In this document: positions 3,868 through 13,290 of the stretch, piece by piece
Layout of the letters: each line of letters starts with the position of its first letter
Position numbering within the stretch: position 1 is the first letter of the stretch
The notes under the pieces: model-generated
What the model was told of the DNA's origin: nothing
What the model saw: the letters and a program-made list of their open reading frames with translations, nothing else
Database searches by the model: none
Assembly (NCBI GenBank): GCA_011051915.1
Contig: DRKF01000101.1
Location: 1-15,878 of the forward strand
Origin: Acidimicrobiales bacterium
GTDB lineage: Bacteria; Actinomycetota; Acidimicrobiia; Acidimicrobiales; Poriferisodalaceae
Reading direction: 5' to 3'
DNA: 15,878 nucleotides
Program-made: the position numbers and the translations under genes

Positions 3868-5055
3868 TCAGGAACGGGGGATGCCCAGACGGGGATCGGA
3901 TACGGCATCGGTGAAGGCCTCGAGGGCCTCGGGCGAGGACACGACCCGCCAGTCGGTCTCCTTGTCGACCTCGAACCAGATGAACCCGACGACATCGGAT
4001 CGGGAAGCGATGGCGTCGATGACGTGGGAGATCCATCCCGCCTTCTGTCCCCCGTCCTCGGTGGCGCCGATCTCCGTGATCACGATGGGTCGGTCGGTGA
4101 ATGATCTGACGATGTCGATGGTCGGGCCGAACAGCTGATCGAAGGTGGGTACGTAGACGGAGGGGTCGATCCCGTTTCCGAGGTAGCCCACCAGCCCCAC
4201 CCAGTCGACGTAGTCGTCACCGGGGTAGAGGCCCTCCAGCGGGGTGAGGTTCGGATCGTCCAGGTTCGGATTCCACACCCAGATCACCTGATCGGCCCCG
4301 GCCCGGGTGAAGATGTCGTGCACGTGGCGCCAGGCGGCGACGTACTGTCCGGAGCGATTGCCGTTGGTGCTCTCGGCCCAGGGATACCAGTAGCCGTTCA
4401 TCTCGTGGGCGAACCGGATGGCCACGGGTCGGTCCCATTCGGCCAGCCCGGCGGCCCACTGCTCTATCTCCTCGTCGAAGTCACCGGCGATGATCCGGGC
4501 CAGGGCGTACTCGGGCTGTTCTCCCCGGCGACGATCGAACGTCGACTCCACCGTGTGGTCCCACGGTTCCCAGGCGATCATCGGAAGGTGCCCCGCCGCG
4601 GTGATCTGCTCGATCGTGGTCAGGTCGAAGTCGGGGGTGGCCCAGTCCCGGCTGATCATCACCACCTCGGGGTCCACGCCGGTCGCCCGGCTGAACTCCT
4701 CCACCTCGGCGAGTTCGCCGTTGGCTGTGCTCACACCGACGAAAGTGGTCCCCGGAGTGCCGACCAGGTCCATCCACGCGTAGGGATCGGGGGGAACGGC
4801 GGTGGTGGTGGGCCCGGTGGTTTCGGGGGGCCCCTCGGTGCCGGTGGTGGAGGGAGCCGGGTCCGGGGTGGACGAGGCCACGGTGGTGACCGGGGTGGCA
4901 GTGGTCGACGTCGGCCGGGGTACCAGGGTTGTCGGGGCGGATGTGGCGGCATCGCTGCTGGTGGCGGGCGACGACCAGGTCGCGAGAACACTGATCAGCC
5001 CCATCGCCACCACGGCGAGGACTATCACCAGTTGTGCGGTCCGGCCCTGGGTCAT
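3868..5055 (-). CDS. Membrane-anchored or secreted glycoside hydrolase family 26 (beta-mannanase/lichenase-type) protein with an N-terminal Pro/Thr-rich linker
   Basis: N-terminal hydrophobic anchor (LVIVLAVVAMGLISVLA), then an approximately 60-aa S/T/P-rich linker, then a catalytic domain with the GH26 signature RFAHEMNGYWYPWA (HEMNG.W..W motif, acid/base Glu) and VITEIGA (nucleophile Glu). It is divergent from the GT2 synthase gene. Confidence 0.7.
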   Translation of the reverse strand: MTQGRTAQLVIVLAVVAMGLISVLATWSSPATSSDAATSAPTTLVPRPTSTTATPVTTVASSTPDPAPSTTGTEGPPETTGPTTTAVPPDPYAWMDLVGTPGTTFVGVSTANGELAEVEEFSRATGVDPEVVMISRDWATPDFDLTTIEQITAAGHLPMIAWEPWDHTVESTFDRRRGEQPEYALARIIAGDFDEEIEQWAAGLAEWDRPVAIRFAHEMNGYWYPWAESTNGNRSGQYVAAWRHVHDIFTRAGADQVIWVWNPNLDDPNLTPLEGLYPGDDYVDWVGLVGYLGNGIDPSVYVPTFDQLFGPTIDIVRSFTDRPIVITEIGATEDGGQKAGWISHVIDAIASRSDVVGFIWFEVDKETDWRVVSSPEALEAFTDAVSDPRLGIPRS

Positions 5056-7771: not shown

Positions 7772-9175
7772 TCAGATCGGGATGATCTCGGCCGGAACTC
7801 CCTCGGGCATCAGGGTGGAGTCGCGCAGGTCGATCGTCGGTTCCGACGCCTCGGTCCCCTGCGGCGCCCCCGATTCGGAGTCGGCTGGGTTCCCGGCGGC
7901 GGGCTCGGCCGCGGCGGCCAGCTCGGTGCGCAGGTCCCTCAGTTCGGCCCGGAACCCGTGCACCAGGTGGGCGAGGGTGATCTCCTCGAGGTCGCTGCCT
8001 CTCATGGTGTTGATGGTGTCGGCCAGTTCGGTGGCGGTCACCACCCCGGGAAGAGCCGAGTTCGAGCGGAGTTCGGCCAGCTCGGCCGACATGTCGTACA
8101 CCGCGGTCGACAGGTCGGCTGTCTCGGCCTCCACGCCCTCCATCGTCGACAGCCGTGCCGCCATGTCGTCCACGGTGGCGGAGAGCCGTTCGATGGACGA
8201 CGCCTGGCGTTGATGGGCGGCCATCAGCTCCCTCCGGACGGCGACCACCGTCTCGGCGAGGTTCTCCACGGACTCCTCGATCCGGCGGGTGTCACCCGAC
8301 GGTCGATCGTCGGCGACGGCCTCGCGTCGTAGTTCCACCATCGCCCGGGCCAGTTGCTCGATGGAGCGGTTGACCGTCGCGATCTGTTCGCTTCCGGCCA
8401 CCTCGGTACGGATCTCGGCCCGCAGCAGATCCACGCCCTCGGTCAACAGAGCCAGGTTCTCATAGAGGCTCTCGACGCGGGCGGGAAGGTCGAGCAGGGG
8501 TACGAGCGTCTCGTGAACGGTGTCGACGGTGCGGGCCGTCGCGGCAACCGTGTCGGGAACAGCGGCCAGGGCCTCCTGGGACCGGACGAGCTGATTGACC
8601 TGTTCGTGGATACGCCCCAGACGGGTCGGGGTCGCCGCCAGGGCCTGGGCCATCTCCAGCAGCCTGTCGATGCGGGGATCGGGTTCGGTCGGCTCCTCGG
8701 GTTCGGCCATGACCTGGAGGATCTCGAGGACCTGGCCCAGCCGAGGGTCGGACACGGGTTCGTTGCGCAGTTCTTGGAGCAGACCCAGCATCTGTTCGAT
8801 ACGTGGGTCTGCGGCGGTCACCGGAATCTGCCCGATGCGCGGGTCTGCGGCGGTCACCGGTATCTGTTCGACTCGGGGGTGGATGCCGGCTCCCACACTG
8901 GTGATGGGTCCCGGGGTGTTCACCGGGGGAGGGGTGCTGTGGTTTCCCGTCGTGGTCGGGTTGGCGGCGGGTGCGGGCCACCAACCGCCGGTGGCGGCCG
9001 GCGGTGCCGAGGGTGACAGCCGTCCCGGCTGGGCGATGATCTGCTCGCACCCGGGGCGTAGTCCGGCGCAGGTCGTTCCCGTCGAGGGGCAGACGCAGTA
9101 GCCGCCCTCCGGTGCGACCGTCATGGCGGAGTCGTCACCGTCCAGAGCGATTCCGAAGTCGTAGCAGTAACCCAT
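7772..9175 (-). CDS. Hypothetical 467-aa protein with a Cys-rich N-terminus, Pro-rich linker, DPR(I/L)xQ repeat block and long coiled-coil C-terminal region
   Basis: The minus-strand ORF has protein-like composition, whereas the overlapping plus-strand ORFs are Arg/Gly-rich artefacts. The GGAGGG SD lies before ATG 9175. The repeats are HPRVEQ / DPRIGQ / DPRIEQ / DPRLGQ / DPRIDR. The C-terminal 300 aa show a Leu/Glu/Ala/Arg-rich heptad pattern. Confidence 0.6.
   Translation of the reverse strand: MGYCYDFGIALDGDDSAMTVAPEGGYCVCPSTGTTCAGLRPGCEQIIAQPGRLSPSAPPAATGGWWPAPAANPTTTGNHSTPPPVNTPGPITSVGAGIHPRVEQIPVTAADPRIGQIPVTAADPRIEQMLGLLQELRNEPVSDPRLGQVLEILQVMAEPEEPTEPDPRIDRLLEMAQALAATPTRLGRIHEQVNQLVRSQEALAAVPDTVAATARTVDTVHETLVPLLDLPARVESLYENLALLTEGVDLLRAEIRTEVAGSEQIATVNRSIEQLARAMVELRREAVADDRPSGDTRRIEESVENLAETVVAVRRELMAAHQRQASSIERLSATVDDMAARLSTMEGVEAETADLSTAVYDMSAELAELRSNSALPGVVTATELADTINTMRGSDLEEITLAHLVHGFRAELRDLRTELAAAAEPAAGNPADSESGAPQGTEASEPTIDLRDSTLMPEGVPAEIIPI
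8796..8867. repeat. Imperfect 36-bp tandem duplication inside the coiled-coil gene, encoding IPVTAADPRIGQ / IPVTAADPRIEQ
   Basis: cgatacgtgggtctgcggcggtcaccggaatctgcc is followed directly by cgatgcgcgggtctgcggcggtcaccggtatctgtt, with 5 mismatches in 36. Confidence 0.8.
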
Positions 9176-9389: not shown

Positions 9390-10382
9390 ATGACGATCGA
9401 CGCTCTGAACCTCTCCGGTGCCCCGACCCCCCTCCAGAGGGCGGATCGACTCGGGCGGGAGCTGGGATTCCAGCCCGGTGCCCTGATGATCAAGCGCGAC
9501 GATCTGACCGTGTTCGGGGTGGGAGGGAACAAGGCCCGCAAGCTCGACCATCTCTGCGCCGATGCCCGGAACCGGGGTTGTCGGACCCTGGTCACGGGTG
9601 GAGCCGTCCAGAGCAACCATGTGCGCATGACGGCGGCGGCCGCGGCGATGCTGGGCCTGGAGTGTGTCGTGGTGCTCGGGGGTCGGGAGGACTCGCCCAT
9701 GGAGGGGAACCTGCTCCTCGACCGCGTGTTCGGCGCCAGAACGGTGTTCACCGGCGCGGTCTACTCCGATGAGTTGGAGGAGGCCATAGCGGAGGAGGTC
9801 GACCGCCTGGACAGCCGGGGTGAGGCTCCGTATCTCATACCCCTCGGAGGCTCGTCCCCGATCGGGGCCCTGGGTTACGTCGACGCCGCCCGGGAGATAG
9901 CTGCGGAGGCCTCCGGAGCGCCGGTGGTCTACACCGCCTGTGGATCGGGAGGCACCCACGCCGGTCTGGTCGCCGGTCTGGGTGACCACGCCCGGGTGGT
10001 CGGGGTGGATGTCGGCGCGGTCCGCGACATCGGGACCAAGGTCGCTTCCCTGGCCCCGATGACGGCGGCGGCGGCCGGGATGGCCGAACCGAGGGGGGAG
10101 GTGAGGTTGGTGAGCGGCCAGATCGGTCGTGGCTACGGAGCACCCACCGAGGCCGCCCGGGAGGCCATCCTGCTGGTGGCGCGAACGGAGGGAATAGTGC
10201 TGGATCCGGTGTACTCGGGCAAGGCCATGGCCGGGCTTGTCGCCGATCGGCGGGAGGGACGCCTGGGGAGCGATCAGCCCACCGTGTTCGTGCACACCGG
10301 TGGCCTTCCCGCCCTGTTCACCTCCCGCTACCGCGACTGGCTGGCGGGGAACGGGAATGCGGTGGCTTCCGACGGACAGTGA
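9390..10382 (+). CDS. PLP-dependent D-cysteine desulfhydrase / 1-aminocyclopropane-1-carboxylate deaminase family enzyme
   Basis: TPLQR...MIKRDDLT..GGNKARKLD is the Lys-containing PLP motif of the ACC deaminase/DcyD fold-type II family, followed by a Gly-rich CGSGGTHAG loop. Length is 330 aa. Confidence 0.8.
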   Translation: MTIDALNLSGAPTPLQRADRLGRELGFQPGALMIKRDDLTVFGVGGNKARKLDHLCADARNRGCRTLVTGGAVQSNHVRMTAAAAAMLGLECVVVLGGREDSPMEGNLLLDRVFGARTVFTGAVYSDELEEAIAEEVDRLDSRGEAPYLIPLGGSSPIGALGYVDAAREIAAEASGAPVVYTACGSGGTHAGLVAGLGDHARVVGVDVGAVRDIGTKVASLAPMTAAAAGMAEPRGEVRLVSGQIGRGYGAPTEAAREAILLVARTEGIVLDPVYSGKAMAGLVADRREGRLGSDQPTVFVHTGGLPALFTSRYRDWLAGNGNAVASDGQ

Positions 10383-10427: not shown

Positions 10428-11174
10428 TCAGCCGTCTCCGTCGGTTGCCAGCACCCGGCCGAACAGGGACAGCATCCGCCGCCAGCTGTCCTCGGCGGCC
10501 TCGTCGTCGTAGCCGACGTGCATCGGGCCCACGGCGGTGACCTTCTTCAGCATCCCGTCGGGGTGCTGGTTCATGAAACTGTGTCCGACACCGGGGTAGA
10601 TGACGACGTCATGGTCCACACCCAGGTCGTCCAGTACGGCGTCGAGCCTCCTGCCGTGGGAGGCGAAGAGACGGTCGCGCTCCCCGAAGCCGCCCACGAC
10701 CGGGCACACCCCGGCCAGCTCGGAGGGGTCCTTTGGTACGTCACCGTAGAAGTCGGCCGTGGCCCGGATCGGGCCCTTGACCCCGTACATCAGGGCGAAC
10801 CCACCGCCCATGCAGAACCCGGCGGCGGCCAGGCGTTCCCCGTCGACCTCGCTGCGGTCGGCCAGCCAGGAGCGGGCCACGTCGAGATCGTCGAAGGCCT
10901 GCCCCTCCCGGTTCCTGAGGGCCTTGAACACCCGGGCCACACAGGCCGGTCGGAACCCGGATCCGAAGAGGTCCGGGGCCAGGGCGGCGTATCCGGCCTC
11001 GGCGAAGCGGGCGGCGATTCGGCGGATGTCGTCGGTCAACCCGAAGATCTCGTGGATCACCAGCACCCCGGGCAGCCCGGCGTCGGTGTTCTCCGATCCG
11101 TCGGGCAGGGCGAAGGAGGCGTTGATCGAGCGGCCGGATCCGGCCGCGATGTCCACGTCGAACTGGAGAACCAT
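10428..11174 (-). CDS. Dienelactone hydrolase family alpha/beta hydrolase
   Basis: GVLVIHEIFGL...AAAGFCMGGGFAL (nucleophile elbow G-x-C/S-x-G) ...YPGVGHSF, typical of DLH/carboxymethylenebutenolidase. ATG 11174 has an AGGAG SD 8 nt upstream. Confidence 0.75.
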   Translation of the reverse strand: MVLQFDVDIAAGSGRSINASFALPDGSENTDAGLPGVLVIHEIFGLTDDIRRIAARFAEAGYAALAPDLFGSGFRPACVARVFKALRNREGQAFDDLDVARSWLADRSEVDGERLAAAGFCMGGGFALMYGVKGPIRATADFYGDVPKDPSELAGVCPVVGGFGERDRLFASHGRRLDAVLDDLGVDHDVVIYPGVGHSFMNQHPDGMLKKVTAVGPMHVGYDDEAAEDSWRRMLSLFGRVLATDGDG

Positions 11175-11255
11175 GTTCGGGCTCCTGGGGGTTGTGGGGA
11201 CTGGCCCCGGCCGGACACGGAAATCGCGCCCGTCAGGGACTGCTGGTGTGCAAAC

Positions 11256-11352
11256 ATGGTTCCACCTAGAAAGGAGGTGGTCCCACCAAATGAACTGTAT
11301 CTGTAGGACCTTGGAGGTGGCCGGGCGCTGAGGCGACCCGCCACGGGTCGCC
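11256..11352 (+). promoter_or_regulatory. AT-rich structured island with a 15/16-nt complement of the 16S rRNA 3' tail (AGAAAGGAGGTGGTCC), flanking anti-SD-like CCACCT/CCACC segments, mini-ORFs, and a downstream 8-bp GC hairpin (11332-11352)
   Basis: The plus strand at 11268-11283 is complementary to the actinobacterial 16S 3' end (...GGATCACCTCCTTTCT), with only G for A at one position. CCACCT (11262-11267) can pair with AGGTGG (11275-11280), and AGGTGG can alternatively pair with CCACC (11283-11287). ATG at 11290 opens a 13-codon ORF, MNCICRTLEVAGR. A second GGAGGTGG lies at 11312-11319. The hairpin is GGCGACCC-gccac-GGGTCGCC. Confidence 0.35.
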
Positions 11353-11567
11353 TCTGATCGCTCAGCGATTCAGGTGGCGACTCCAACCCGGACCACCGGA
11401 ACCCCGGACCCCGCGGCCTGGTCCTGCCGCGGCATCGACGAGGGCTCACCCGCCCCGCCGATGAAGGTGTCCGGGGTTCTTCCGCGTCCGCCCGGTTCCG
11501 GAGCGGAGACCAGTGGTGCGGGACGACGATTCCCCGGCGACCCGAGGGGGTCTCCGTATCGGCAATC

Positions 11568-13028
11568 ATGGTGGTCATGATCGATCCCCAACTCGTCAGA
11601 GCCTCGGTGGAGACCGCGTGGGATTCGGGAATCGTGGACGTGCTGCGGCGCTACATCGAGATCCCCAACAAGAGCCCGGCGTTCGACCCCGGGTGGTCCG
11701 ACCACGGCCACATGGATCGGGCCGTGGAGATGTTCGTCGCCTGGGCCCGGTCCCGGCCCATCGACGGTCTGACGGTGGAGGTGGTGCGTCTGAGCGGACG
11801 GACCCCGCTGATCCTCATCGAGGTTCCCGCCACCGCGGCCGGGTCCGACGAGGATCCCGACCGCTCCGAACCCCGGACCGTTCTTCTCTACGGGCATCTC
11901 GACAAGCAGCCCGAGATGGAGGGCTGGGACGCCGACAAGGGTCCCTGGCAGCCGGTGCTCGTCGGTGAACGTCTGTACGGCCGCGGTGGGGCCGACGACG
12001 GCTACGCCATGTTCGCGGCCCTCTCGGCGGTCGAGGCCGTCCGGGCGGCGGGGGGCAGCCACTCCCGTCTGGTGATCATGATCGAGGCATCGGAGGAGTC
12101 GGGCAGTCCCGATCTCCCGGCCTACGTGGACCATCTCGTTCCCCGCCTGGGGACGGTCGACCTCGTCGTGTGCCTCGACTCGGGGGCCGCCGACTACGAC
12201 GCCCTGTGGGTCACGACCTCGCTTCGGGGTCTCGCCGGCGGGACCCTGGAGGTGACGATGCTCGAGGAGGGCCTCCACTCGGGCTCGGCCAGTGGCGTGG
12301 TCCCCTCGACGTTCCGGATACTGCGCCATCTCCTGGATCGGGTCGAGGACTCCGCGACCGGGCAGATACTGCTTCCCGAACTGAACGCGCCGATTCCCGC
12401 CTCGGTGGTCACCGCCGCGGTGGAGTCCGCCGAGGTCCTCGCCGACGAGGTAGTCGAGTGCCTGCCCTTCGTGGAAGGGGCCCGGGCGGTGTCCGATGAC
12501 GTGGCCGAACTCGTGGTGAACCGGACATGGCGCCCGACGCTCTCGGTGACCGGACTCGACGGTGCACCCCCACCCGAGGACGCCGGGAACGTGCTGCGCC
12601 CCCGAACCCGGGCGAAACTGTCGTTCCGGCTGCCGCCCACCGTGGACAGTCAGGCGGCCCTGGAGGCGATCGAGCATGCTCTGACGTCCGATCCTCCCTA
12701 CGGGGCCCGGGTGGAGCTGACCGAGGGGGAGGCCGGTCCGGGTTGGTGCGCTCCGGAGCTCGAACCGTGGCTGGCCGCGGCCCTCACCACCGCCTCGGAG
12801 ATCCACTTCGGTCGCCCGGTGGGATTCCAGGGCGAGGGGGGCTCCATCCCCTTCATGGGCATGCTGGGTGAGAGGTTTCCCTCCGCCCAGTTCGTGGTGA
12901 CCGGGGTGCTCGGACCGGGCTCCAACGCCCACGGCCCCAACGAGTTCCTGGATCTCCCCACCGCTCGCCGGCTGACCGCGTGCGTGGCCCACGTTCTCGA
13001 CGGGCATGCCACGAGGAGCCGGTCATGA
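11568..13028 (+). CDS. M20/M25/M40-family metallopeptidase (dipeptidase/carboxypeptidase-like, with dimerisation domain)
   Basis: LLYGHLDKQP (metal-binding His/Asp), RLYGRGGADDGYAMFAAL (the M20 G-x-x-DDK/G motif), IMIEASEESGS (catalytic Glu-Glu). Length is 486 aa. Confidence 0.85.
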   Translation: MVVMIDPQLVRASVETAWDSGIVDVLRRYIEIPNKSPAFDPGWSDHGHMDRAVEMFVAWARSRPIDGLTVEVVRLSGRTPLILIEVPATAAGSDEDPDRSEPRTVLLYGHLDKQPEMEGWDADKGPWQPVLVGERLYGRGGADDGYAMFAALSAVEAVRAAGGSHSRLVIMIEASEESGSPDLPAYVDHLVPRLGTVDLVVCLDSGAADYDALWVTTSLRGLAGGTLEVTMLEEGLHSGSASGVVPSTFRILRHLLDRVEDSATGQILLPELNAPIPASVVTAAVESAEVLADEVVECLPFVEGARAVSDDVAELVVNRTWRPTLSVTGLDGAPPPEDAGNVLRPRTRAKLSFRLPPTVDSQAALEAIEHALTSDPPYGARVELTEGEAGPGWCAPELEPWLAAALTTASEIHFGRPVGFQGEGGSIPFMGMLGERFPSAQFVVTGVLGPGSNAHGPNEFLDLPTARRLTACVAHVLDGHATRSRS

Positions 13029-13089: not shown

Positions 13090-13290
13090 ATGACCGACGG
13101 AACCCCCGAGATGTTGAAGTTCGAGTGTCCGCGTTGCCACCGGGAGACGTCGGCCCGGTTCTACGGCCCCTGTGAGGAGTGCCGTGAGGAGCTGATCGCC
13201 ACCCTCGGTGGTGAGGCCAGAGATGTCGAGGTGGCCGAGTACGAACCGAAGATGAACGTCACTCCCAACCAGGTCGCCACCAAGGACTAG
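13090..13290 (+). CDS. Small zinc-ribbon protein (66 aa), CPRC-x11-CEEC; its 3' end is the first unit of a 68-bp tandem repeat
   Basis: ATG 13090 has GGAG 8 nt upstream. It lies about 60 bp downstream of the M20 peptidase on the same strand. It has four Cys in two CxxC pairs. The last 20 codons plus the stop are re-copied three more times downstream. Confidence 0.5.
   Translation: MTDGTPEMLKFECPRCHRETSARFYGPCEECREELIATLGGEARDVEVAEYEPKMNVTPNQVATKD

Follow-up and report, generated by a model that had tools for sequence, protein, structure and literature searches.

The extended Shine-Dalgarno (SD) sequence in the divergent spacer between the DLH and M20 genes is the 5′ end of a structured RNA of about 220 nt, which runs on the + strand from about 11264 to about 11482, both ends being predicted from sequence (the window, here and below, is the whole stretch of 15,878 nt that was analysed). 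By comparison of sequences and covariance models, this RNA belongs, as a divergent copy, to the actinobacterial Ms_IGR-5 family (RF02471), and we count that membership as established. We consider it rather probable that the locus is an independently transcribed gene for a structured sRNA, most likely working like the rre small mRNAs of alpha-proteobacteria, by analogy with which the RNA probably docks ribosomes.

The initial annotation, made without database searches, had described an AT-rich island carrying a near-perfect complement of the 16S rRNA 3′ tail, and its literal observations agree with the sequence (Table 1). The divergent spacer measures 393 bp. The 16-mer AGAAAGGAGGTGGTCC differs from AGAAAGGAGGTGATCC by a single mismatch (15 of 16 positions identical), adjoins CCACCT on its 5′ side and is directly followed by CCACC. 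The 13-codon ORF, the upstream ORF with Pro-Pro pairs, the second GGAGGTGG and a GC hairpin, here of 10 bp, are all present as well. The term AT-rich suits the core (11253-11312, 46.7% GC, compared to 68.1% for the window) but not the whole RNA (67% GC), and the super-SD is no island, being one end of a conserved RNA. The statement that no annotated feature explains it was half right: a match to RF02471 exists, but it does not reach the cut-off.

Indeed, a search of the entire window with Rfam at gathering threshold gave no match, and the Ms_IGR-5 model aligns with 11264-11386 (+) at 28.3 bits (E=1.3e-4), below the gathering cut-off of 45 bits, a threshold set on a model dominated by mycobacterial sequences. 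The L31-Actinobacteria leader model was discarded at 20.4 bits, also below its cut-off. Homologues were sought in other genomes with an exact 24-base pattern based on the super-SD motif, which retrieved at least 120 loci with one match each; among the matches listed, the family is present in single copy per sampled genome across Actinomycetota. Because the pattern forces GGTCC, GGAC and GAGGTGG, the invariance of these blocks is not independent evidence. On the Rfam model the retrieved homologues reach scores between 48 and 190 bits and are genuine Ms_IGR-5 members, with a gradient from Mycobacterium (175-190) through Micromonospora (98) and Nonomuraea (56) to Acidimicrobiales (49) and, below the cut-off of 45 bits, the subgroup of the window (L001, L026, L034 and L074). 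A covariance model (R1) was built without the window from 62 non-redundant members of the family, many of them above the Rfam cut-off; it matches 11260-11399 (+) at 66.8 bits (E~1e-13), the runner-up match reaching 11.6 bits. The window and the family have in common their sequence blocks, helices and mini-ORF position, a 5′ start of ACAC or ACC followed by GAAAGGAGG, and an end after P5. The subgroup differs from the family at large in a bulged A in P2, in TGA rather than TAG as stop codon, in the junction GGCGACUCCAA in place of GGCGAAUnCC, and in a predicted extended -10 promoter where others have a -35/-10 pair.

Table 1. Features of the window and of the RNA gene within it (window positions).
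Feature	Position	Strand	Remarks
DLH ORF	10428-11174	-	
Extended -10 element, TGC + AAACAT	11249-11257	+	Predicted by comparison with relatives; putative TSS A11264
Pro-Pro ORF, MVPPRKEVVPP	ATG at 11256		
CCACCT	11262-11267		Adjoins the 16-mer on its 5′ side
P1, 5′ strand CCUAG	11265-11269	+	Pairs with 11310-11314 (CUUGG) at 4/5 positions, one U·U
SD1, extended Shine-Dalgarno	11268-11283	+	16-nt complement of the canonical 16S 3′ tail, one G·U
P1b, 5′ strand GUCC	11280-11283		3′ part of SD1
Mini-ORF MNCICRTLEVAGR	11290-11331	+	ATG 11290; 13 codons + TGA (stop 11329-11331)
AGGACC	11305-11310	+	GGAC is the P1b 3′ strand; hexamer is a candidate pseudoknot partner
SD2, second GGAGGUGG	11313-11320	+	Within the mini-ORF as codons E-V-A
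P2, 5′ strand GGUGGCCGGG	11316-11325	+	Pairs with 11387-11397
P2a and inserts	11326-11379	+	CGCU 11326-11329 with GGCG 11376-11379, around P3 and P4
P3 and P4	11330-11354, 11357-11369	+	Variable hairpins enclosed by P2a; 10-bp GC hairpin at 11330-11354
Junction ACUCCAA	11380-11386	+	Conserved, one-sided; family consensus GGCGAAUnCC, subgroup GGCGACUCCAA
P2, 3′ strand CCCGGACCACC	11387-11397	+	A11392 bulged
3′ domain	11399-11479	+	P5 around P6 and P7, then UUCUUCC tail
P5	11399-11411 with 11466-11479	+	11+2 bp
P6	11412-11431	+	Loop CUGGUCCU at 11418-11425
P7	11433-11437 with 11459-11463	+	Within P5
M20 ORF	11568-13028	+	

Paired with the canonical tail GGAUCACCUCCUUUCU, SD1 would form 16 contiguous pairs, 15 of them Watson-Crick and the mismatch appearing as a G·U wobble; this tail is the canonical 16S 3′ end rather than the host's own, the source being a hydrothermal-vent MAG contig that carries no rRNA. 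The chance test confined to the window is weak (up to 3 mismatches allowed, 0.10 matches expected per shuffle, at least one match in 20/200 shuffles), and the decisive evidence is conservation: among the matches listed, 8/8 distinct variants of the 16-mer keep 13-16 contiguous Watson-Crick or G·U pairs with the canonical tail, with AAGGAGGTGGTCC imposed by the search pattern. Within the RNA, the AGAAAGGAGGUG part of SD1 lies in an internal loop. SD2 ends 8 nt before the stop codon of the mini-ORF, and its GGUGG opens the long-range helix P2.

P1, P2 and P5 covary in the family. In the family alignment, 88.5% of the cells are paired, compared to 29-43% in slid controls, and compensatory cells number 127 versus 36 in shuffles, 0/500 of which reach that value; RNAalifold recovers P1b and the inner part of P2. 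Covariation is seen in P1 (AU38/CG17/GC6; CG44/AU12/GC5; GC41/AU13) and in the inner pairs of P2 (UA51/CG11; CG30/GC11/UG10/AU5/UA5). The RNA is assigned to the + strand because G·U pairs are frequent. A minus-strand reading as a 16S rRNA fragment (GGACCACCTCCTTTCT) was rejected, with no SSU match and with many G·U pairs that fit the + strand only, and a tmRNA-like reading, suggested by the ORF and the T-loop-like GCGAAUCC, was dropped when ARAGORN found no tRNA or tmRNA. The window itself forms P1, P1b, P2, P2a, P5, P6 and P7, and its full-length fold has z = -4.16. All 10/10 pairs of P2 form and are recovered in the single-sequence centroid fold. P1, with its U·U, is weak in the window.

The inserts within P2a vary in length across the family. 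Directly 3′ of P2 follows P5, a helix of ~12-13 bp (median 12 bp) whose sequence differs by clade, and the 3′ domain with its UUCUUCC tail is, as modelled, the probable 3′ end or terminator. A GTCC lies 10-55 nt 3′ of P2 in 99/112 copies among the matches listed, and in the window AGGACC could form a candidate pseudoknot of 6 bp with the P6 loop GGUCCU (11420-11425). Among the matches listed, 57/89 copies are paired at the flanking position GGAC+1:GUCC-1, with 5 pair types, a result matched by 0/5000 shuffles. The basis for the pseudoknot consists of two flanking positions only, paired in 64% and 44% of copies. A possible contact between the junction GAAUUCC and the P1b loop, arrived at by reading sequences, was inconsistent across clades and was abandoned.

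The mini-ORF starts in the P1b loop, its ATG lying 6 nt past the 16S complementarity, and proceeds through GGAC, the P1 3′ strand, SD2 and the P2 5′ strand to a UGA spanning P2a and P3. Sequence comparison across the family shows its frame and stop to be conserved. Among the matches listed, the stop position is fixed in 103/104 distinct copies (TAG 79, TGA 12, TAA 12, never TGG), and ATG, GTG or TTG occurs in frame in 88 copies, as opposed to 2 and 3 copies for the two remaining frames; in relatives the frame survives substitutions. Across the family, 7-13 nt separate GGAGG from the start, which follows the 16S complementarity by 2-7 nt. Fourteen Acidimicrobiales copies have CTG alone in frame, and about 2-3 copies are without any start. 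Family-wide conservation supports the earlier view of the extended SD and the 13-codon ORF as functional features that go together. Two more specific roles for the peptide were considered and set aside: a cysteine-sensing leader, brought up by the Cys codons of MNCICR and by PALP, CBS and rhodanese genes nearby, finds no counterpart in most family peptides or in those of the close relatives L127, L129 and L133, which are without Cys; and a macrolide-type R-x-R arrest motif is common as RTR, but GTL, WTC and RTL occur too.

Promoter-like elements directly upstream of the RNA, together with the lack of a universal neighbour, suggest a stand-alone RNA gene. A scan of the window for consensus sigma-70 promoters and terminators found none, and the promoter was recognised only through comparison with relatives: a TGTG-n-nAAAnT motif 7 nt upstream of the 'ACC' start is kept in the window and in L125-L127, L129 and L133, with a similar TGn+CAnAAT in Acidimicrobiia copies and TTGcc-N17-TAgcgT in Actinomycetes copies. 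Among the 120 loci listed there is no universal synteny around the RNA. Ms_IGR-5 was first found in Mycobacterium smegmatis. It was validated by RNA-seq in S. lividans (PMC8079986), its TSS and 3′ end were mapped in S. avermitilis (PMC8780764), and a discrete transcript of ~180-230 nt has thereby been shown in Streptomyces. The searchable literature gives the family as a non-coding sRNA, a description from which the conserved ORF is absent. Searches for M. tuberculosis candidate names, the nucleotide motif and peptide strings returned nothing, and those on Rv0813c and in sRNA reviews nothing relevant.

The initial annotation had proposed a translationally controlled leader of the downstream M20 operon. 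As a cis-acting attenuator, in which translation of the mini-ORF would decide between termination at P5 and read-through into the peptidase gene, this is unlikely, even though relatives (M20 identity 86, 85, 67, 66 and 64%) have the RNA 5′ of M20 and in the same orientation, with a gene upstream of the RNA that differs (DLH, MT0933-like or PALP). P5 with a U-rich tail resembles a regulable terminator, as with the U-tract between P5 and M20 in L127 and L129, and between the RNA and M20 the window shows no obvious strong terminator. However, this arrangement is consistent only in the clade of the window: no M20 homologue is near the RNA at any of 120 other loci among the matches listed (0/120), where the commonest downstream neighbour is a convergent gene, the nearest downstream gene being a convergent THAP4-like gene at 22/120 loci and such a gene being present at 31/120. 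In L133 an acyl-CoA dehydrogenase gene intervenes, and no RNA is present within 4 kb of the M20 orthologues of Ilumatobacteraceae type (63% identity). Moreover, the PALP...M20...aminotransferase block is syntenic throughout the clade, so that the linkage of RNA and M20 may be merely inherited. The spacer from P5 to M20 is not conserved, the mini-ORF has no regulatory codon run, and no antiterminator alternative was identified. The proposed sensing mechanisms, an RNA thermometer or an EF-P/polyproline attenuator working through CCACCU:AGGUGG and AGGUGG:CCACC hairpins and the Pro-Pro ORF, retain next to no probability. The 6-bp CCACCU:AGGUGG hairpin can form in the window and is present in the MFE fold of 11240-11400, but the centroid fold of the full-length RNA leaves the 5′ region open. 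The thermometer is removed because its partners are not conserved: among the matches listed, the 6-bp CCACCT occurs in 1/110 distinct copies, most having 3 pairing bases, and CCACC in 2/110, so that they are restricted to the lineage of the window, and the SD box is in the family a conserved internal loop rather than a conserved sequestering hairpin. With a TSS at A11264, the first CC of CCACCT would not even be transcribed. The EF-P reading falls because the ATG of the Pro-Pro ORF lies inside the predicted -10 box, upstream of the putative TSS, and because the ORF is rare in the family, an upstream ATG ORF occurring in 16/121 copies and Pro-Pro in 3/121 among the matches listed.

Two other readings start from the RNA itself. 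That its two GGAGGUGG boxes seed on C-rich or anti-SD-like RNAs (6C sRNA, mRNAs), as in a trans-acting sRNA or sponge with an incidental or secondary ORF, we regard as quite unlikely. In several actinobacteria the family has been both annotated as an sRNA and detected, and a stand-alone gene with two exposed purine-rich boxes and a stable 3′ domain would suit this role; yet pairing alone leaves unexplained a frame-specific start and a stop fixed in three codon types, and SD2 is base-paired within P2. A small-protein gene whose functional product is the 13-aa peptide is improbable. It would account for a start, frame and stop conserved phylum-wide and for the recurrent C-terminal xT-x-EVA-x-x, and the peptides of rreB and rreR each show conservation inside their own clade. 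Against it, the conserved residues come from paired nucleotides or from the pattern-fixed GGAC and GAGGTGG; R, G or W stands ahead of Thr, which means that the position preceding GGAC accepts any base; the codon that comes next covaries with the P1 5′ strand and encodes R/L/S/C/T/P/E/H; and the N-terminus and the length (12-19 codons) vary. On these sequence grounds the peptide does not look selected, its residues appearing to follow RNA pairing. The earlier suggestions of a small-protein gene and of a standby site or sponge nevertheless came close to the family, whose nearest analogues are the rre genes.

For the ribosome-docking sRNA gene that we prefer, we infer the docking of 30S subunits, translation in the host, the pseudoknot switch and any downstream function. 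The extended SD would dock 30S subunits unusually tightly, and initiation and translation of the mini-ORF would unzip P1, P1b and P2, so that the fold, stability or activity of the RNA would be coupled to ribosome engagement. The peptide would be a by-product of translation, because its residues are dictated by RNA pairing. The GUCC of the 3′-domain loop would probably compete with the SD-adjacent GUCC for the single GGAC, giving two states of the initiation region. It is tempting to speculate further that Ms_IGR-5, rather than being a non-coding sRNA, is the actinobacterial counterpart of rre, a phylum-wide, single-copy ribosome-docking mini-mRNA with an ORF kept for remodelling, a GUCC/GGAC toggle and a role as readout or buffer of free 30S subunits or translation capacity; this extended proposal is possible, and we advance it as tentative.

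The super-SD is neither an oddity confined to a single intergenic region nor, probably, a switch specific to M20. It marks a small RNA gene whose conservation across Actinomycetota is among the widest, with Mycobacterium and antibiotic-producing actinomycetes among the carriers. The Rfam model misses whole classes (part of Acidimicrobiia, Thermoleophilia), and annotation would benefit from a broader one. The frame-conserved mini-ORF that follows 16 nt of anti-16S sequence, with a peptide that seems unselected, links the family to the rre small mRNAs of alpha-proteobacteria, and this link can be followed up in hosts that are easily worked with, M. smegmatis and Streptomyces among them. If the proposal is true, a ribosome-docking RNA that arose independently in two phyla would define a general RNA class, and the RNA would report or buffer free 30S subunits or translation capacity.

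Among known systems, rre-like genes have been reported in Caulobacterales (Hahn et al. 2016, PMC5711450), and rreB, an mRNA of 165 nt, combines 17 nt of anti-16S sequence with an sORF of 14 codons; it binds 30S, is weakly translated and has a stability that depends on the start codon (PMC5711450). The RNA described here resembles rreB and rreR as a stand-alone small transcript, with a housekeeping-type promoter in rre and a predicted one in the window; in 16-17 nt that can pair with the 16S 3′ end just ahead of an sORF (14-18 codons and directly following in rre, 13 codons in the window); in a complement that is single-stranded only in its 5′ part, the remainder lying in a hairpin, as predicted here; in the absence of context conservation between orders; and in ribosome association, suggested indirectly for Ms_IGR-5 by ribosome footprints on the homologues of M. 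abscessus and M. smegmatis (PMC4974804). Differences are also apparent. The rre genes belong to alpha-proteobacteria and Ms_IGR-5 to another phylum, and the RNA of the window is longer (~220 nt versus 165 nt), with its ORF in long-range helices, another SD-like box within that ORF and an extensive 3′ domain. In rre the complementarity runs into a GTG start, whereas the ATG, TTG or GTG of the family stands clear of it, and rre peptides are conserved within clades, whereas the Ms_IGR-5 peptide follows RNA pairing. The CC2171 RNA of Caulobacter (RF01867) also has GAAAGGAGGUGAUCC near its 5′ end and a GC-rich terminal hairpin; its match in the window, 20.9 bits compared to a cut-off of 75 (E=0.025), is limited to the SD box and one hairpin, and was taken as a resemblance only, not as membership. 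With leader-peptide attenuators and liberated attenuator sRNAs such as trpL/rnTrpL, of which stand-alone versions exist, the RNA shares a very short ORF, translation of which would rearrange the helices that follow, but it has neither regulatory codon runs nor a downstream operon conserved across the family, and no conserved terminator/antiterminator alternative emerged. The closest functional parallel is with the rre small mRNAs.

The 393-bp spacer separating the dienelactone-hydrolase (DLH) and M20 peptidase genes does contain, as the initial annotation had stated, a complement of the 16S rRNA tail, AGAAAGGAGGTGGTCC at 11268-11283. A check of the sequence also located the CCACCT immediately 5′ and the CCACC immediately 3′ of this 16-mer, a second box GGAGGTGG at 11313-11320, a GC hairpin (10 bp, 11330-11354), an ATG at 11290 opening the mini-ORF MNCICRTLEVAGR with its TGA stop at 11329-11331, and a Pro-Pro ORF from the ATG at 11256. 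The sole mismatch to the canonical complement places a G opposite U, so that the whole 16-mer is able to pair with the canonical tail through 15 Watson-Crick pairs and one wobble. The AT-richness ascribed to the region holds for a 60-nt core (46.7% GC vs. 68.1%), but not for the structured RNA of about 220 nt as a whole. The extended Shine-Dalgarno (SD) is a real feature, well beyond chance expectation, and identifies the element as a divergent copy of Ms_IGR-5 (Rfam RF02471), a small RNA already known across the phylum.

At curated Rfam thresholds the whole window gives no match. A permissive scan finds Ms_IGR-5 at 11264-11386 (+) with 28.3 bits against a cut-off of 45 (E=1.3e-4) and, more weakly, the Caulobacter sRNA CC2171. 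Homologues were sought in one genome per species with the exact pattern AAGGAGGTGGTCC-N15-45-GGAC-N2-6-GAGGTGG, derived from the window and the Rfam consensus, which fixes GGTCC, GGAC and GAGGTGG; at least 120 loci in other genomes matched, once per locus. Among the matches listed are Actinomycetes (Mycobacterium, Micromonospora, Nocardioides, Nonomuraea, Pseudonocardiales, Kineococcus and others), Acidimicrobiia, Thermoleophilia and three Terriglobales (Acidobacteriota) MAGs. The Rfam cut-off is passed by 11 of 18 loci tested, with scores declining steadily from 175-190 bits in Mycobacterium to 49 bits in Acidimicrobiales, and the most window-like copies among the matches listed (L001, L026, L034, L074) fall under it. 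A covariance model built from 62 non-redundant members, with the window left out, scores the window at 66.8 bits (E~1e-13, 11260-11399, +), the next best match reaching 11.6 bits. This score points to a divergent Ms_IGR-5 member, missed by an Rfam model of too narrow scope, and we regard membership of the window element, under the curated threshold and clearly homologous, as almost certain. The Terriglobales copies (L017 2623-2818, -; L061 about 4485-4548; L092 about 1297) have a longer, 19-codon ORF, e.g. VEDSGSRRLDIWTSEVAEG, and L017 exceeds the Rfam cut-off (47.7 bits); they could mean that the family spans phyla, that it was transferred horizontally or that the contigs were misbinned.

Helices of the Ms_IGR-5 element and flanking genes in the window
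Feature	Position	Strand	Remark
DLH gene	10428-11174	-	PF01738
P1	11265-69 with 11310-14	+	forms in window, one U·U
P1b	11280-83 with 11306-09	+	forms in window
P2	11316-25 with 11387-97	+	forms in window
P2a	11326-29 with 11376-79	+	forms in window
P5	11399-11411 with 11466-79	+	forms in window
P6	11412-31	+	forms in window
P7	11433-37 with 11459-63	+	forms in window
M20 peptidase gene	11568-13028	+	PF01546

Comparison of copies shows that P1 joins the initial bases of the RNA to the stretch immediately 3′ of the conserved GGAC, and that an inner hairpin GUCC...GGAC (P1b) holds the start codon within its loop; the SD box AGAAAGGAGGUG is located in a one-sided internal loop between the two. The long-range helix P2, whose 5′ strand starts inside the second GGAGGUGG, is extended by P2a, which holds the stop codon, encloses variable hairpins (P3 and P4 in the window) and is followed on its 3′ side by a conserved junction (GGCGAAUnCC in the family, GGCGACUCCAA in the window). 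The 3′ domain consists of P5, a helix of ~12-13 bp directly after P2, enclosing P6 and the small hairpin P7; the P6 loop carries GUCC in 99/112 copies among the matches listed. In a MAFFT alignment of the family, 88.5% of cells are paired, with changes on both sides at 15 pairs and 127 compensatory cells vs. 36 in shuffles (0/500), while slid controls are paired at only 29-43%. P1b and inner P2 were recovered independently by RNAalifold, and the frequent G·U pairs fit the + strand alone. The full-length window fold is far stabler than shuffles (z = -4.16), its centroid holding P2, P3, P5, P6 and P7.

The P6 loop carries the same GUCC as the segment following the SD box, and a single GGAC is available as partner for both. 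Among the matches listed, the position after GGAC pairs with that before the loop GUCC in 57/89 copies (UA 17, CG 12, GC 12, UG 9, AU 6), a count reached by 0/5000 shuffles, and the position before GGAC with that after GUCC in 39/89, again with 0/5000 shuffles as high. In the window the match extends to 6 bp (AGGACC 11305-10 with GGUCCU 11420-25). The 5′ GUCC is lost in one relative (L129), which keeps GGAC and the loop GUCC. This natural variant (L129/L130 4710-4859), with GGGGAUGAC in place of GGUGGUCC, lacks the P1b 5′ strand and retains the ORF frame. Such evidence, two partly paired positions in related sequences, is at most suggestive of a candidate pseudoknot through which the initiation region may adopt two alternative states.

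The stop codon of the mini-ORF lies at an identical position in 103 of 104 distinct SD-to-stop segments among the matches listed (TAG 79, TGA 12, TAA 12), and TGG (Trp) occurs there in none of them, though purines occupy both variable positions. An ATG, GTG or TTG 4-14 nt past GGAGG is in frame with this fixed stop in 88 segments, compared to 2 and 3 for the other two frames; for ATG alone, 42 are in frame and 1 out of frame (again among the matches listed). Variable loop length results in ORFs of 12, 13, 14, 15 or 19 codons, and the frame is kept despite substitutions in close relatives of the window (MNCTCRTLEVVGR, MSSHKRTLEVVGR, MISESRTLEVAGR, MANNNRTLEVAGR). The codon overlapping GGAC encodes R, G or W, which implies that any base is tolerated before GGAC; the next variable codon falls in the 3′ strand of P1, which covaries, and specifies R, L, S, C, T, P, E or H; and the residues E-V-A correspond to the second GGAGGUGG, where P2 begins. 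Peptide residues being set by RNA constraints, selection appears to act on ribosome start and stop and not on the peptide made, and from these sequence patterns we conclude that the mini-ORF, but probably not its peptide, is a family feature. CTG is the only in-frame start in 14 Acidimicrobiales copies among the matches listed, and a few copies lack any start. In CTG-only copies of this type (L009, L014, L024, L036, L050, L060, L080, L085, L087, L107, L108, L113) the CTG candidate always follows GGAGG at a distance of 8 nt. Either the very strong SD drives initiation at CUG, or translation was lost in this subgroup.

Actinomycetes copies feature TTGcc-N17-TAgcgT ~7 nt ahead of the RNA start. 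An extended -10 element, TGTG-n-nAAAnT, is common to the window and its relatives 7 nt ahead of 'ACC', from which A11264 is the likely predicted transcription start; the Rfam consensus shares this start and runs to just past P5. No universal neighbour gene was found among the matches listed. In Mycobacterium, Streptosporangiales and Pseudonocardiales, one flank of the RNA is occupied by a YgfZ-like, class-IV aminotransferase or FUR gene and the other by a convergent THAP4/nitrobindin-like gene; the neighbours are different in Micromonospora and several Acidimicrobiia. This pattern fits a stand-alone RNA gene. Published data agree with such a reading: Ms_IGR-5 was detected by RNA-seq in S. lividans (PMC8079986), its start and 3′ end were mapped in S. 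avermitilis (PMC8780764), and ribosome footprints cover it in M. abscessus and M. smegmatis (PMC4974804).

Sulfur/cysteine-related genes recur near the RNA across unrelated lineages at inconsistent orientation and distance (L001, L027, L057, L088, L003, L005, L028, L046, L099, L100 and mycobacterial loci): a PALP enzyme upstream in the window (9390-10382, +), L129 and L133, PALP+CBS (cluster c6) in Acidimicrobiia and Micromonospora, and rhodanese and DsrE-like genes in Mycobacterium and Streptosporangiales. A 467-aa ORF of the window (7772-9175, -) has no Pfam match, and similar family-less genes of 436-449 aa adjoin the PALP gene in relatives L125, L126 and L129. Directly downstream of M20 lies an ORF of 65-66 aa without Pfam match (about 13090-13290, +; nearby in L133), conserved in that it is called in L121-L125 (66 aa at L121 4523-4723), L133 and one further contig.

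Among several options, the initial annotation had suggested for the SD and its flanks an RNA thermometer or an EF-P attenuator. Among the matches listed, the proposed upstream 6-bp sequestering partner CCACCT occurs in 1/110 distinct copies and the downstream CCACC in 2/110, and an upstream ORF with Pro-Pro in only 3/121 copies, that of the window starting in the predicted -10 box; both readings are therefore rejected. The same option took the element for a leader of the M20 operon. In this hydrothermal-vent MAG and in relatives with M20 identities of 86, 85, 67, 66 and 64% the RNA lies upstream of M20 in the same orientation, and two relatives have a clear U-tract after P5, ahead of M20. The gene on the other side of the RNA varies among these relatives, one of which has an acyl-CoA dehydrogenase gene between RNA and M20; the sequence separating P5 from M20 is not conserved; and no such RNA occurs within 4 kb of Ilumatobacteraceae-type M20 genes (63% identical). 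The PALP ... M20 ... aminotransferase block is itself syntenic in the clade of the window. We read the linkage as inherited gene order, and a local cis effect on M20 by read-through is unlikely. The unconserved spacer of the window also holds a weak sub-threshold match to the L31-Actinobacteria ribosomal-protein leader (11492-11542, +; 20.4 bits vs. 35, E=0.23). Another clade-specific co-directional neighbour, like M20 in the window, is an MBL-fold (RNase Z-like) gene in Micromonospora (L002, L003, L005, L028, L046, L099, L100), about +250 nt from the RNA start and only ~20-30 nt past its end.

As the most likely mode of action, proposed with moderate confidence, a ribosome would dock on the RNA and translate a 'dummy' mini-ORF, whereby the RNA would be remodelled. 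Ms_IGR-5 is already known as a family; this reading is new for all of it and moderately interesting, and a literature search, in which not all journals were covered, found no paper that connects Ms_IGR-5 with rre genes or with a conserved ORF. The system nearest to it in mechanism would be the rre small mRNAs of alpha-proteobacteria. The rreB RNA (~165 nt) has its own RpoD-type promoter and terminator, 16-17 nt complementary to the 16S 3′ end and single-stranded only in the 5′ part, and an sORF of 14-18 codons; it binds 30S strongly, is weakly translated, relies on the start codon for its stability, and lies in a genomic context that is not preserved from order to order (Hahn et al. 2016, PMC5711450). 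Genes of rre type are reported in Caulobacterales, which fits the weak CC2171 match of the window, and not in Actinobacteria (PMC5711450). The start codon lies inside the complementarity in rre, whereas in Ms_IGR-5 it follows a few bases beyond; moreover, Ms_IGR-5 differs in a mini-ORF that forms part of long-range helices and contains a second SD-like box, in a peptide not conserved as such, and in its large 3′ domain.
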